From a virus: a DNA stretch of 28,151 nucleotides. The position numbers and the translations under genes are program-made. The notes under the pieces were generated by a model, which was not told where the DNA came from, made no database searches, and saw nothing but the letters and a program-made list of their open reading frames with translations. Each line of letters starts with the position of its first letter. Positions within the stretch are counted from its first letter, which is position 1. Shown here piece by piece: positions 1,887 to 28,151 of the stretch. The DNA lies in the IMG/VR virus record IMGVR_UViG_3300028534_000016, positions 1 through 28,151 of that record. The stretch is one strand, 5' to 3'.

Positions 1887-3008
1887 TTACATAACTAGAG
1901 ATAATTCTTCTTCAAATATTTTTAACTCATTCACAGTAAGGTTATGTTTACTCATTTCATCGCTCATTAGTTCTCTTATATTATCTGGTGTTATTTGGAA
2001 ACTATCTATTTTAGGCATGTCTAATAACTTATCTTGGTCTAGCTTAGTATCTTTCTTTTCTTTACTTTCTATCTTAATATAATAATTAGGATACTTATGC
2101 TTAACAGCATCTTTACTCTTTTTAAGAGAACTATCTTTGTTAACTAATATCCTTACATAACTATGTTCTTTTATCTTACGTATATCCTCGTCTAATAACT
2201 TATATACTGTGTCATCATCTATTCCGGAATAATTAAGTGTTTTAAATATCATACTATTTTTATTCGGTATAAAAATATATTCCATATCGTTATGTTCTTT
2301 ATCAATAGTGATGACCATACCACCTTTGTCTTCTTCTTCGTTATGTGTTAATCTATCAAAACTACCTTGTGCCAATATTCTACCATTAACACTATGTATG
2401 TGTATATGTCCTATACTAATATAATATTTAACTATATCTAAATAATCATTTTCGTTATGGCTACTTTCTAAAACTATCATAGGTAACTGATAATGAAACT
2501 GACCATGCATAATAGCTATATCTACTTGTGTTAAATGTTCTTCTTCCAATAACTTCTTAACATCTTCATATGTTTCACTAGCTTTATGTTTATACTCGTC
2601 AGGAACATATAAAATAGTTAAACCTAAATCTTCCATCTTCTCAATAGCTAATGTATCTATGTATTTAAAATCTAAATCTAAATTAGTTTCTTTTAATACT
2701 GTATTAAGTACTGACGCTTGGCGCCAATCATGTCCTGGTGTTCCTTCTAATATTCTTAACTTAATATTATTGTGTTTACAATACATAGCTAATGTAGTTA
2801 GCCACTCTAATGCTAATAGAAATGCTTTACTTCCGTTTACTAATAACTTATCGAATATATCTCCAGCTATAAATATAATATCCAAATGTTTAAATATTTT
2901 ATGGTTGTCTTCAAAATAGGTTCTTAAGTTAGCTACTATATTCTCAGTAGGGTTTTTATCGTGTCCTAAGTGTATATCTGATAATACTAAATATCTAATA
3001 GGTTTCAT
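1887..3008 (-). CDS. sbcD: SbcD/Mre11-like metallophosphoesterase nuclease
   Basis: SDIHLG, AGDIFD, GTPGHD, MHGQF and GHIH motifs; start placed at MKPIRY (AAGGAG RBS at 3014-3019). Confidence 0.85.
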   Translation of the reverse strand: MKPIRYLVLSDIHLGHDKNPTENIVANLRTYFEDNHKIFKHLDIIFIAGDIFDKLLVNGSKAFLLALEWLTTLAMYCKHNNIKLRILEGTPGHDWRQASVLNTVLKETNLDLDFKYIDTLAIEKMEDLGLTILYVPDEYKHKASETYEDVKKLLEEEHLTQVDIAIMHGQFHYQLPMIVLESSHNENDYLDIVKYYISIGHIHIHSVNGRILAQGSFDRLTHNEEEDKGGMVITIDKEHNDMEYIFIPNKNSMIFKTLNYSGIDDDTVYKLLDEDIRKIKEHSYVRILVNKDSSLKKSKDAVKHKYPNYYIKIESKEKKDTKLDQDKLLDMPKIDSFQITPDNIRELMSDEMSKHNLTVNELKIFEEELSLVM

Positions 3009-3079
3009 TATTGCTCCTTGAATCATCATTAATGTCCAATCTATATAAAAACAAAACAGACCCGACCCCGGAGCTAACG

Positions 3080-3350
3080 ATTACTGCTTGTTATTCTATT
3101 TGGGTAGTTATTTTTCTATATTTCAATTTATTCTTCTATTAATATTATTACAGCGATTAAAAGAATTAATTTAATTAAAAGAATACAATTCTATTACAGC
3201 ATATTTTGCTATTTATATTTTTCTATTTGCTATTATATGAAACTATATTAATCTAGTACATATAATTGTTAATATATAGTTTCCTACTGATGACCGAGAC
3301 AGCATTCTCGGAGAATGTAGAAGCTGGCAACCAGACAAGCTAATTACTGC
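3080..3350 (+). repeat. four direct ATTACWGC octamers (3080, 3147, 3193, 3343)
   Basis: Seen directly in a long AT-rich non-coding region. Confidence 0.55.
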
Positions 3351-3370
3351 GTATTAAAAATAAAACCTAT

Positions 3371-3447
3371 TCTCTTCTTTCTTTTTGAAAGGAGGGGGAG
3401 AGGGGCGCTAGCCCCTCTGTGGGGGAGGAAAACTTTTTCTTTCTTCT
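3371..3447 (+). other. mirror-symmetric pyrimidine/purine tracts around a GC hairpin (origin or ncRNA candidate)
   Basis: tcttctttcttttt-g-aaaggaggggg [agaggggc gcta gcccctct gt] gggggaggaaa-ac-tttttctttcttct. Confidence 0.6.
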
Positions 3448-3472
3448 AGTTTCTTAAGTTATGTTATAATGT

Positions 3473-3505
3473 TATAGTATGGAGCTAAATTAGCTCCATA
3501 CTATA
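3473..3505. terminator. palindromic hairpin, family copy 1
   Basis: tatagtatggagcta-aat-tagctccatactata, 15-bp perfect stem. Confidence 0.65.
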
Positions 3506-3555
3506 TGTGTATATTTTTTTTATATTTTAGATGATATATTATTTAAGGAAATATT

Positions 3556-4032
3556 ATGAAAATGTCAAGAACTGATATTAAACTCATTATACGTTATTTA
3601 GTTATAATGTATTTATTATATTTAGCAACTAAAATTATACAACCTGAATGGTTAAATTCTGTAGACTATTTATCAGGAACAGCATTATCAGTATTGGTTG
3701 GTTCTGTTTATGGTGCATTAGGATTAGTATTAAAAGCACACTTTAAATACGGTCCAAATAAAGACGATAAAGATGAAGACAATATAATTATCACGAAAGA
3801 TATAAAGATTGCTTCTAGGTACCTTATTTTATTCTATATGATGTATTTAATAACATATGTTACAAGCATTGAATGGTTAGAATCTGTTAAGGACATTAAA
3901 GACACACCAATGTCTGTTATATTAGGCTCAGTTTATGGTGCCTTGATTATAGTATTGGGTGCTCACTTTGAATATAAAGTAGATGATACTAATATAAACT
4001 TACCTAATGTAAATAGCGGTAATAGATATTAA
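3556..4032 (+). CDS. membrane protein made of two tandem 2-TM repeats (holin-like candidate)
   Basis: Internal duplication DIK..RYL...Y..YL.T....EWL.SV.....T..SV..GSVYGAL..VL.AHF.Y occurs twice; AAGGA RBS. Confidence 0.7.
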   Translation: MKMSRTDIKLIIRYLVIMYLLYLATKIIQPEWLNSVDYLSGTALSVLVGSVYGALGLVLKAHFKYGPNKDDKDEDNIIITKDIKIASRYLILFYMMYLITYVTSIEWLESVKDIKDTPMSVILGSVYGALIIVLGAHFEYKVDDTNINLPNVNSGNRY

Positions 4033-4048
4033 AAAAAAAAATAATGTT

Positions 4049-4077
4049 ATAGTATAGAGCAATAAGCTCTATACTAT
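4049..4077. terminator. palindromic hairpin, family copy 2 (bidirectional terminator candidate)
   Basis: atagtatagagc-aataa-gctctatactat between convergent genes; A-run just upstream. Confidence 0.75.
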
Positions 4078-4418
4078 TTACAATTGTATTTTGCTCTTAC
4101 TAAATCTATTTCAGATATCTTATATCCAGTTACTTCTTCATACCACATGACACTAGCATGTTTTACTAAACAAGGATATATTATATCAAATCCTGTACTA
4201 GCTTTTAACGCTGTTAAATCTAAAAGATGTTTGTGTGGATGAGTTATTGTATCGAAGTTATCAGCTAAATGACTACATATTTCGTTAAACAAAAAATCAT
4301 CATAAACGTTTACATCTAATTCATAATACAAATAACTAGACATGAGATAATGACTAACTAATTTATTAATAGGAGTAGACTTTACGTCTACTATCCTATT
4401 TCTTTCGTCTCTTTCCAT
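4074..4418 (-). CDS. stand-alone protein resembling NAD-dependent DNA ligase subdomain Ia
   Basis: SYLYYELDVNVYDDFLFNEIC resembles the LigA Ia YY..D.P.I.D..YD motif; start moved to MERDER (AAGGA RBS). Confidence 0.55.
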   Translation of the reverse strand: MERDERNRIVDVKSTPINKLVSHYLMSSYLYYELDVNVYDDFLFNEICSHLADNFDTITHPHKHLLDLTALKASTGFDIIYPCLVKHASVMWYEEVTGYKISEIDLVRAKYNCK

Positions 4419-12915: not shown

Positions 12916-13447
12916 CCCTATCTCCTATTTTTTCTTCTAAATCCCTCATGCATTTTTCTTTCTTATCTAAAGGGATCTTATTTATTTTTGCCGAATATTT
13001 CCAATACACATCATCTATGATATTTTTAAGATGAAATAAAACTAATCCATCTCTAATATCACTATTTGTAGTTTCCACTTCTAACAACTTCTTAATAACA
13101 GTCCAATTATCGTTATCTGTTATTTTTAATAAACTACATAACTCCGATAGTACTTCTTGTGTTGTATTATCTTGGTTATGGTTAGAAGTTATTTTCTTAT
13201 CTGTAATTGTGAAGTAATGTGCAGGAACACCATTCCAAAAATGACTCATAGTTGGGAAATACTCTTTATTAGTATATGGAATCATATCACCGTTAGCTAA
13301 TCTACGCTTTACAATATACCCGTCGATAAAAGCTTTCTTAAATACTGCTAATTCATCATCAGCTATAGCTAAACCACTTTTACAATCTTCTAAATTAACC
13401 AATTCCCAACCATTATCTGTTTTAGTCCATACTTTTATTTTGTTCAT
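12908..13447 (-). CDS. hypothetical protein
   Basis: ORF track; start moved to MNKIKVW (GGAG RBS). Confidence 0.7.
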   Translation of the reverse strand: MNKIKVWTKTDNGWELVNLEDCKSGLAIADDELAVFKKAFIDGYIVKRRLANGDMIPYTNKEYFPTMSHFWNGVPAHYFTITDKKITSNHNQDNTTQEVLSELCSLLKITDNDNWTVIKKLLEVETTNSDIRDGLVLFHLKNIIDDVYWKYSAKINKIPLDKKEKCMRDLEEKIGDRDE

Positions 13448-14703
13448 TATTTTCTCCATTATATGTTAGATATTTTTCAACATCTTTTGGTTTGGTGTTC
13501 GGTGACAAGCTTTCACCTCTACACAACTCTAAGAAATTACGATACCATTTATTACCAACTCTGTATTTGTAGATCTTAGAAATTTCGTGTTCTAAGTAAT
13601 CTTCCAACTTAGAAAATTTATCATACTTAATACGAATTAACGGAATTCCGTGTATGTATGCTAAAGTATCCTTTTCTTTATCTCTTTCTTTTATACGTTT
13701 AAAAGTTTTTTCTCCACCAAATATCTTTACAGGTTTAAAATGTTGCTCGCCATCATACTCTATAAGTATATTGAGTTCTGGTAAATAGAAATCATACTTG
13801 TATCTACTTCCTGGTAAACTATATTGTCTCACATATTTTATGTTTGCGGTATCTAAATAGGTCTTTATTCTTTTCTCTCCTTTAGAAGACTTACATACTG
13901 GACAACCATTACGATGACTAGTGTGATCTGTTGGTATTTGTTCAAAATCACCATGTATAAGGCAAGTTATTGTTACTGGTATTTTGTTATTATTTGTTAT
14001 TAATATAATTAACTTTATCATAATTATATTTATTACCATGTACTAGTCTTGATTTCTTTATAAAATCTTCTTTTGTGGGTGTTTGGTTTAAACGATTGAG
14101 TTCTTGACCACACTTAGTACATCCTGTTGTTGAATTTAAATGTGAATTAGGGTACATTAGTTGTGTTCCATGTATAGGACAAATAATTTTTATTTTATTA
14201 AATGCTCCAGTATATTCTGTTACAGAATAATCAAACTTATCACCGTGTTTAGCTTTCGATTCTTTGATAAACTCTTCAGTAGTTTTGGTGTTTTTTAAAT
14301 CAGTAGATTCTTTGCCACACTTAGAACAACCATTACCGCTAGTATGTGAACTAGGTCTAATACTAAAATCTCCATGTTTAGGGCAAGTAACATCTACTTT
14401 ACTTTTATCATCAACATATTTTACATTATCATATAGGTATTTGTTACCGTGTTTAGCTATAGCTTTTTCTATAAAAGATTCCTTAGTTCCTCTTTTAGAA
14501 GCACGCATAGCTTCTATGCCGCACTTAGGGCAACCATTTTTGGATATTAAATGCTTATATGGTGTTTGTTTAAATTTACCATGTAACGGACACATAATCT
14601 CTACATGCTTATGCATACTTTTAAAATCAGTATTGTCGTAGTTAAATTTATTACCGTGTTTAGCTATTGCTTTATCTAACCAAATTTGTCTTTTATCTTT
14701 CAT
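13422..14703 (-). pseudogene. free-standing homing endonuclease (four CxxHG...CxxC zinc repeats plus Vsr/PD-(D/E)xK-like nuclease) disrupted by a 10-bp duplication
   Basis: Repeats of F...A..KHG.KY.Y....Y......V.I.CP.HG.F...P..H....GC.KC; C-terminal SKGE..I, YDFY, IEYDGEQH; tttgttatta duplicated at 13983-14002 breaks the frame. Confidence 0.85.
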
Positions 14704-26674: not shown

Positions 26675-26947
26675 ATGAGTGAAAGGTTAACCATGAAAGA
26701 AAAATTACATAATTTTAATATAAAAATAAAAACACAACAGAAACAAAGAATAAGAAATTTAACAGAATTACAAACTAATATACTTGTAAATAGAACCGAT
26801 AATGATCCTTTACCATATGTTATACCTAGATTAAATATTGAAGAAGATTTATATAAGTTAAAAGACGTAGATAAAGCGGGAGAGTTAATAGCTAAACATA
26901 TAAAAGAAAATAAACACATAGCTTTAATTACAGACTATGACGCGGAT
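26675..26947 (+). CDS. recJ: RecJ ssDNA exonuclease (DHH family), exon 1
   Basis: Ends with HIALITDYDAD, the first part of DHH motif I. Confidence 0.9.
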
Positions 26948-27324
26948 AAATAATATATAATTGTCCTGGTTGATTAGTAATAATCAATTTAATATCTATC
27001 TAATTGCGGGAAACCCCTTAGAGCTCTATAGTACTACTTACAGCTAGAAATAGACTGTAATACTCCGGCCGTAATAGTGGTAAGGAGCATAGTAAAAACC
27101 TATAGAGATTGGGCAACCGACGCAGCGAAGTACCTAACCTGTAACTACAGTATGGTATGTGTTCAACGACTATCTCCGGCGGGAGAGTACACTCTAAGCA
27201 GAGTGGAAATGATAGACACCCTAGCTATGCATATAGTGGGTGAAGATATAGTCTGGTCTCTAGTGAGAGCTAGAGCAGTGGTAAGACCACGGATGTGTAG
27301 TAGCGATACATATCGAACATTACG
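26948..27324 (+). ncRNA. group I self-splicing intron (IA-like, no ORF), 377 nt
   Basis: 5' exon ends in U; P1 GGAU/GUCC with U.G pair; P aattgcgggaa (27002), Q ...cgcagc (~27116-27126), R gttcaacgacta (27161), S aagatatagtc (27243); P7 gacta/tagtc; P3 tctatc/gataga; terminal G at 27324; removal restores DYDADGINS. Confidence 0.95.
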
Positions 27325-28151
27325 GGAATTAATTCAGCAGTAATACTATCCTTAACTATGTCAGAAATATTTGGTTTAAAAGAAAATAAAGATTTTGTAG
27401 TTTTTGTTAATAGACGTTCAGATGGCAATGGTTTTAACAAAACATTATGTGATCGTATTTTAGATTATGATGCTAACACTAAGAAAATAGATTTAATTAT
27501 AACAGCAGACCATGGTTCCTCAGATGAAAAAGTAATACCGTTGTTTATAGAAAGAAATATTGATTTCTGTTTAACAGACCACCATGAAATACCTAAAGAT
27601 AATTATCCTAAATCAGCTACAGTATTTGTTAATAATCAAAGAGAAGATAGTACGTACAGTAATAAAGTATCAGGTTGTTTTGTAGCGTTTCTTACTATGG
27701 TGGCTACTTATGATAAATATTATAACCATATAGATATGGATAAATTTAATTTTCTATTACCATTTGTAGGATTAACTACTATATCTGACGTAATGCCTTT
27801 AGACGAAGTAATTAACAGAGCTATGGTTCAATTCGGTCTTAATGAGATGAATTCAGGAAGAAGATTATTGTGGCAAGTTTTAAGAAGAGAGATGGGTATT
27901 TTTACTAATATTAACAGTACAGAAATTTCTTTTAAATTAGCTCCTTTAATCAACACTGCTTCAAGAGTAGGGTGTGAAGATGTAGCTTATAATTTACTAA
28001 CAGCTACTAAAGAAGAAGATATTCGTAGAAACATTAAACGTTTACAGAAAGAGAGCAAAGTACGTAAGTTAGAACAGAAAAAACTTAATAGAAAATCTGT
28101 AGCACAAATAGCTAATCTACCGTATAAAAACTCAGTAGTGCTTTTATTAGA
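27325..28151 (+). CDS. recJ: RecJ exon 2, partial (runs off right edge)
   Basis: GINSAV..., RRSDGNG, LIITADHG, LTDHH, SGCFVAF, TISDVMPL...NR, FKLAPLINTASR. Confidence 0.93.

Follow-up and report, generated by a model that had tools for sequence, protein, structure and literature searches.

A phage gene for a RecJ-like exonuclease that is cut in two within its catalytic motif raises the question of what lies between the halves, and whether they are still made into one protein. We addressed this question in the first 28 kb (28,151 nucleotides, hereafter the window) of the IMG/VR record IMGVR_UViG_3300028534_000016, which is 138,469 bp long and 53% complete according to CheckV. The record comes from a phiKZ-like jumbo phage whose genome is about half assembled. 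At the recJ locus, gene callers annotated separate products of 92 and 487 amino acids, between which an initial annotation, made from the DNA letters alone, had placed a group I intron without an open reading frame (ORF). Our analysis makes it very probable that positions 26948 to 27324 of the window hold an IA-type group I intron that is competent to splice, inserted at DYDAD/G of the RecJ gene of this AT-rich phage (the slash here and below marks a splice site).

The intron and the gene it interrupts

The identity of the element was assessed by covariance search, taking a score above the gathering score (50 for RF00028) over the whole model as membership of group I. The family RF00028 matched positions 26945 to 27275 of the window, on the plus strand, with 89.3 bits (E-value 7.3e-22) over model positions 1 to 253, the full length of the model. 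This was the sole Rfam family found in the window, and the intron boundaries that had been proposed earlier proved exact to the base. The 377 nt of the intron have a G+C content of 41%, peaking at 45 to 47% in windows of 200 nt, compared with 22 to 31% in the flanks and 30% in the genome, and their minimum free energy has a z-score of -2.8. The intron is devoid of any coding frame that runs through it, with stops in all frames. A lone frame of 88 amino acids starting at GTG had no match in Pfam or PHROG, overlaps the ribozyme core, and enters exon 2. No homing endonuclease ORF was found within the intron, in agreement with its earlier description as ORF-less. A scan for promoters and terminators around the intron returned nothing above chance. 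Other kinds of insertion were considered as well. An intein was rejected since the frame closes after a single codon, a group II intron since there is no match and the size does not fit, and a programmed bypass since the insertion is a structured ribozyme of 377 nt rather than a short gap.

Exon 1 ends with GAC GCG GAT (that is, ...GCGGAT) at 26947, the intron starts with AAATAA at 26948 and ends with TTACG at 27324, and exon 2 starts with GGA ATT AAT TCA at 27325. The terminal guanosine (omega G, 27324, plus strand) is the sole G that gives an in-frame join (D/GINS) at the 3' splice site. Joining at UUACG/GGA yields DYDAD/GINS in frame, and the joined exons read ALITDYDAD/GINSAVILSL. The context of the intron-less site is GACGCGGAT/GGAATTAAT. 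Meanwhile, the frame of the unspliced RNA gains a single codon (AAA) and then meets TAA. These readings bear out what the initial annotation had claimed on the terminal G, on a GAT/GGA join that restores DYDADGINS, and on a stop after one extra codon in the unspliced RNA.

The gene on both sides of the intron is a recJ. Exon 1 (26675 to 26947, plus strand, 91 codons) ends in TDYDAD, the DxD part of DHH motif I, and matches positions 2 to 75 of PHROG 2484 (RecJ-like ssDNA exonuclease). Exon 2 (498 codons, plus strand) runs from 27325 to the end of the window at 28151 and on to genome position 28821. It holds the rest of the DHH domain followed by the DHHA1 and RecJ_OB domains (PF01368, PF02272 and PF17768, all above cut-offs, in the conserved order and uninterrupted by stops), and matches positions 90 to 339 of the same PHROG. 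On the full record, the joined exons encode a protein of 589 amino acids. Its closest solved structures are bacterial RecJ proteins, the best being that of Deinococcus radiodurans (5f54), and it has the motifs DYDAD at the end of exon 1, TDHH, and FGGHKQAAG (the GGH motif).

The join itself is supported by homologues. The sequence TDYDADGINSA is colinear with 18 of them, exon 1 is colinear with the N-termini of the intron-less ones, and uninterrupted homologues of about 580 to 600 amino acids are continuous across the join, where they read TDYDxDG(I/V)NSA. Motif I of one such uninterrupted homologue aligns to GDYDADGV of a solved RecJ. Motif I of DHH enzymes supplies the aspartates that hold the catalytic metal ions, which places the intron inside a catalytic motif. 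Loss of these DxD ligands would render a RecJ inactive.

Six related introns in one genome

The recJ intron is one of six in this phage. Besides it, RF00028 gave five matches in the genome, three of them above the cut-off, and the recJ copy has the highest score of the six. Two copies lie in the DNA polymerase gene (genome 52853-53294 and 53437-53848, plus strand; pol_I1 and pol_I2) and two, on the minus strand, in the genes of other RNA polymerase subunits (67581-68105 and 136307-136786; the 67k and 136k copies). All four are inserted after GAU and all carry a GUAGCGA loop on P9.2. The last copy, of about 1.26 kb (110852-112109, minus strand; positions 2852-4109 of locus L009; the 110k copy), splits the gene of the RNA polymerase (RNAP) beta' subunit, whose exons cover positions 4 to 484 and 486 to 538 of PHROG 2986. 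Its cut, GGAGATT/...ACG/TCGATGGCGAC, restores GDF/DGD, a catalytic motif of the NADFDGD type. Downstream (3') of this intron we observed a fragment of 117 amino acids that resembles an endonuclease, followed by another piece of RNAP (108403-110289).

The secondary structure of the recJ copy, P1 to P9.2, was written by hand from the Rfam alignment. All 97 base pairs of P2 to P9.2 are standard and P1 was read directly from the sequence, which upholds the complete P1, P3 and P7 pairings described in the initial annotation. In P1, the 5' strand GGAU/AA (26944-26949) faces the internal guide UUGUCC (26961-26966), with U26947 opposite G; the U.G pair that had been noted at the 5' splice site is thus present. 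The helix has just four exon pairs and two intron pairs, and P10 appears weak as judged from the sequence (G.U, G.U, or a shifted AAUUA with UAAUU). P2 (26970-26987) is a hairpin of 7 bp with a GUAA loop, whose stem sequence is specific to recJ; among the paralogues, 5 of its 7 pairs are changed on both sides. The 5' strand of P3, P4, P5 to P5c (with a GAAA loop on P5b), P6 to P6b and the 5' strand of P7 occupy 26995-27173. They are followed at 27174-27205 by P7.1 (CUCC with GGAG) and a compact P7.2 (CACUCU with AGAGUG, closed by an AAGC loop), both of them perfect hairpins (intron positions 227-238 and 243-258, respectively). The P3' strand, P8 and the 3' strand of P7 (AUAGUC) follow at 27211-27253, and P9, P9.1 and P9.2 at 27258-27314, all on the plus strand. 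P9.2 presents the invariant GUAGCGA loop on a covarying stem (helix 21, fully paired in all copies, with 3 doubly changed pairs). Because of the extra hairpins P7.1 and P7.2 between P7 and P3', the intron would belong to subgroup IA and look IA2-like, an assignment made on the P7.1 and P7.2 criterion alone. More than half of viral introns are of subgroup IA2 (PMC11835236).

Comparison of the six paralogues supports this structure. Across them, 89.8% of the cells are paired, against 28 to 43% when the 3' partners are slid by 1 to 3 columns, and 41 pairs are doubly changed, against 6 to 17 in the slid versions. Among 500 shuffles, none reached any of the observed covariation measures. The compensating changes fall mostly in P2, P3, P5a, P5c and P9.2, and P7 is invariant in the six copies. 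P1 was kept outside this count, and the covariation between exon and guide was read directly. The recJ copy and pol_I1 both have the exon end GGAU/ and the guide GUCC, whereas pol_I2 combines AGAU/ with GUCC at the cost of one mismatch. The 136k copy pairs AGAU/ with GUCU, the 67k copy GGAGAU/ with GUCUU, and the 110k copy GGAGAUU/ with GAUCUUU.

The recJ intron and the RNAP beta' intron are nearly the same ribozyme, with 289 of 293 identical positions from P3 to the terminal G (178/179 from P3 to P7 and 111/114 from P3' to the terminal G). The core differs at four positions: C186U and A265G each leave a wobble pair in place, and the other two are loop changes, one in L8 and one in L9. The two copies differ chiefly in the guide/P2 module and in P7.1-P7.2: identity is 24/40 over L1, guide and P2, and 23/37 over P7.1-P7.2, which also contains an indel of 43 columns. 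The guide/P2 module of recJ is nearer to that of the second DNA polymerase intron, with GUCCUG followed by a hairpin with a GUAA loop. The recJ copy is also the shortest of the six, its P7.2 being a simple hairpin where the other five copies carry an extra hairpin of about 19 nt. The six copies thus share blocks in differing combinations, which makes the family a mosaic. In the phage collection, the window had no close DNA relatives, only partial matches to the intron cores of other phages; the best matches to the recJ intron were introns of other phages with 71 to 74% identity over part of the query.

The RNAP beta' intron encodes what the recJ intron lacks. An ORF of 274 amino acids (genome 111262-112083, minus strand) sits between its 5' splice site and its guide, which lies about 850 nt from that splice site, so the endonuclease gene is placed in the P1 loop. 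This ORF matches PHROG 559 and 9084 (homing endonuclease, E-value 4e-51) and Pfam DUF723. Two free-standing paralogues of the enzyme occur elsewhere in the assembled genome. One is intact and 534 amino acids long (genome 96554-98128). The other, in the window at 13422-14703 on the minus strand, has DUF723 zinc repeats and a nuclease domain in two frames, separated into a zinc-repeat ORF and a nuclease ORF by an exact tandem duplication of 10 bp (tttgttatta twice, 13983-14002). No nuclease family was matched by the genes that flank recJ and no endonuclease paralogue adjoins it; the nearest free-standing one is this broken copy, 12.3 kb away. The alternatives raised in the initial annotation, an endonuclease that was lost or one that works in trans, take concrete form in the sister intron and these paralogues.

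Origin and activity of the recJ copy

Based on these comparisons, the recJ copy most likely arose by ectopic spread within the six-copy family, because its core is almost identical to that of the RNAP beta' copy while its guide and P2 fit the recJ exon and resemble those of a DNA polymerase intron. The core would later have been kept alike, or recently copied, by recombination. Since the recJ intron has no endonuclease gene, any present mobility would need an enzyme acting in trans or recombination during co-infection. The window paralogue at 13422-14703 is a possible trans-acting enzyme for it.

The distribution of split and intact alleles bears on this origin. A search for intron-less recJ alleles, one of the checks proposed at the outset, found the DxDxDG motif uninterrupted in all 70 testable relatives (31 IMG/VR loci and 39 JGI/ENA metagenome loci), 12 of which have the same GGAT/GG site. 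The Rfam scan covered the 31 IMG/VR loci, where RF00028 had no match, and the 39 metagenome loci were judged by the DxDxDG motif. A full HMMER search with exon 1 also returned two far relatives, P0124 and P0126 (48% and 46% identity). P0124 is an ORF of 90 amino acids that ends exactly in TDMDCD, and P0126 is one of 115 amino acids that reads TDYDVD followed by 8 codons. In addition, the homologue P0016 (491 amino acids) starts 7 residues past the insertion site. Their protein ends make it probable that P0124, P0126 and P0016 are interrupted at this site too, and P0123 is another candidate. P0036 was rejected as a split allele, as its cluster contains a full-length member of 584 amino acids. 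Protein searches of IMG/VR with exon 2, P0124 and P0126, and of metagenomes with P0016, returned nothing.

Two other homologues displayed irregularities away from this site. P0127 (199 amino acids, on a Logan contig of 1652 bp) is continuous through motif I and ends a few residues past DHH (TDHHQIKYNHY, LFFVY, stop), which may be a second insertion site or a mere contig end. In locus L080 (match 1257-2993), the RecJ match extends over 1737 nt for 495 query residues, some 250 nt above expectation, and an insertion elsewhere in that recJ is possible.

These alleles give some weight to a quite conceivable alternative that we do not favour, namely that the recJ intron has long occupied a homing site common to many phages, once had its own endonuclease, and came to resemble the RNAP beta' copy through later gene conversion of the core. 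The ends of the P0124 and P0126 ORFs, at DxDxD/ or 8 codons beyond, would fit such a shared site, and the mosaic make-up of the six copies would fit the conversion. A hint of a lost ORF is that the recJ intron opens with 14 bases, AAAUAAUAUAUAAU, that align with the last codon, the stop and the next bases of the sister endonuclease ORF, AAAUAACAUGUGAU. Both introns begin with AAAU, and the match would fit a deletion of the ORF between AAAU repeats; the stretch is AT-rich and the match weak. However, every one of the 70 testable relatives is intron-less, including the 12 with the same GGAT/GG site, and the far split alleles are known by their protein ends.

If the recJ copy did arise by ectopic spread, possible routes are ectopic homing, reverse splicing and gene conversion between copies. 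The support for reverse splicing as a route to new sites is circumstantial only (PMC3984707). The insertion sites of the family fall in the DxD of RecJ, two NADFDGD motifs of RNAP, and the catalytic aspartate of the DNA polymerase. From this we draw a bolder reading that is rather unlikely to hold in full: the six introns would form one recombining family, in which a GUCC or GUCU guide reads RGAU and lands the intron after the GAU aspartate codons of metal-binding motifs, gene conversion keeps the core uniform, and the guide/P2 module is swapped to fit new sites. If true, the recJ copy would be a case of natural retargeting by module swap, possibly through reverse splicing.

We infer splicing of the recJ intron from its sequence and from established group I chemistry. 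P1 would form between the guide UUGUCC and GGAU/AA, an external guanosine bound in P7 would attack after U26947, and the freed exon end would attack after G27324, giving a ligated mRNA for the 589-aa RecJ. A ribosome on unspliced RNA would halt one codon into the intron, releasing a 92-aa fragment and keeping the ribozyme free of ribosomes. Production of RecJ would then depend on splicing, as the initial annotation had put it.

The interrupted allele occurs in more than one assembly. Junctions between exon and intron are spanned by contigs of three sequencing runs, which belong to two studies. One contig of 2419 nt extends from exon 1 to intron position 73 with zero differences, and contigs of the second study, which lead from the intron into exon 2, differ at about 7% of positions (7 of 207 in the intron, 43 of 474 in the exon). 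No intron-less joint was seen among the DNA contigs covering recJ, and none of the listed runs in which the sequence occurs is an RNA run. Among the 21 differences listed for exon 2 of this second strain, 10 alter an amino acid, for the most part conservatively, and none introduces a stop codon. In the intron, 7 differences are listed: 6 lie in loops or preserve pairing, and that at intron position 257 would disrupt a P7.2 pair if no compensating change is present. A separate JGI contig encodes a 92-aa exon 1 product that is 91% identical and has the same end, DYDADK. In runs X1 and X3, contigs break within window positions 26969-27300, where their depth is 5 to 10 times that over the flanking exons; a multi-copy intron family in the sample would have both effects.

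It is very improbable that the intron is decayed or inactive, leaving recJ a pseudogene, or a gene for just the 487-aa protein that starts at Met 27358 without motif I. Such decay could account for the missing endonuclease, for the shortness of the recJ copy and its loss of the P7.2-region hairpin that the other five keep, and for the two products annotated by gene callers. Against it, the recJ copy scores at the top of the six with every core helix intact, and the two exons, which are open and in phase, are conserved in a strain that has diverged by about 9%, with changes that are mostly silent or conservative. Moreover, the conservation of exon 1 would lack an explanation if only a RecJ without DxD, and hence inactive, were made. 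That the insertion is an assembly chimera of intron cores repeated in the metagenome, as the breaks and the raised depth over the core might suggest, can practically be dismissed in view of the 2419-nt contig that runs from exon 1 into the intron without differences, the contigs that join intron to exon 2 in three runs of two studies, the guide and P2 that are unique to the recJ copy and fit the recJ exon, and the separate JGI contig with its own DYDADK end.

For annotation, this means that the phage RecJ is one protein of 589 amino acids, of which the 92-aa and 487-aa entries each represent one half. At least three other metagenomic alleles probably need to be corrected likewise.

Relation to known systems

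That group I introns interrupt active-site codons of phage genes for DNA metabolism is textbook knowledge, and the element described here is itself of an ordinary phage kind. What is new is the set of six related introns, the near-identical sister that bears an endonuclease, and the same split in a second strain. The host gene is also uncommon. The initial annotation did not recall recJ among known intron hosts, and we found no report of a recJ group I intron in the searchable full-text literature, where reviews and surveys list other host genes. It seems that recJ has rarely or never appeared in papers as a group I intron host, and motif I of RecJ can be added to the catalytic sites targeted by selfish elements in phages.

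The closest known relative of the recJ intron is the RNAP beta' intron of the same phage. Both share the ribozyme from P3 to the terminal G and both interrupt an aspartate-rich metal-binding motif (DxDxD/G and GDF/DGD, respectively), but the RNAP beta' copy has its own 274-aa endonuclease ORF, the guide GAUCUUU, a different P2 and a longer P7.1-P7.2, all of which the recJ copy lacks. One genome thus offers a natural pair of introns with cores about 99% identical, one with an endonuclease in its P1 loop and the other ORF-less with a different guide and P2. This pair is a substrate for studying how introns reach new sites, how recombination homogenizes their cores, and whether an intron-borne endonuclease serves an ORF-less sibling.

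The layout of the RNAP beta' locus recurs in phiKZ, where gp180 is followed by gp179, which we take to be an endonuclease, then by a stretch of 41 nt with a 93% match to the recJ intron, and then by gp178. Another jumbo phage that forms a nucleus, PhiPA3, offers a functional parallel. The gp210 intron in its virion RNA polymerase gene encodes a nicking HNH endonuclease, homes, and hampers phiKZ (PMC11620839). Like the recJ intron, it is a group I intron placed beside the catalytic aspartates of an essential nucleic-acid enzyme; unlike the gp210 intron and its HNH enzyme with a competitive role, the recJ intron encodes nothing.

In the described cases of collaborative homing, the endonuclease gene adjoins the intron-bearing gene. 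The recJ phage resembles these systems in having an ORF-less intron at a conserved site of DNA metabolism and free-standing endonuclease genes elsewhere in the genome, and differs from them in that its nearest paralogue is distant and broken by the 10-bp duplication. In collaborative homing, ORF-less phage introns are served by free-standing endonucleases that cut the intron insertion site (PMC3984707).

In architecture, the recJ intron recalls those of Staphylococcus phage Twort and of T4 td, nrdB and nrdD, which, reportedly according to Landthaler and Shub, belong to subgroup IA2. The likeness lies in the compact form, the P7.1 and P7.2 hairpins, the occurrence of several introns per genome in genes of nucleotide or DNA metabolism, and the early in-frame stop after the 5' splice site. 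The host genes are different, and DNA similarity to the recJ intron is not detectable beyond the conserved core elements. Jumbo phages commonly harbour group I introns, and Jug phages have about 18 of them per genome (PMC12880540).

Finally, related introns at different rDNA sites have been taken as evidence of reverse splicing (PMC1299323; PMC3984707). As in rDNA, the siblings described here occupy non-homologous sites, with a guide matched to 4 to 7 exon bases. The recJ family differs in that its members occupy protein-coding phage sites, each of which ends in GAU or GAUU, and in that its copies are mosaic, a feature that speaks for DNA recombination no less than for an RNA route.
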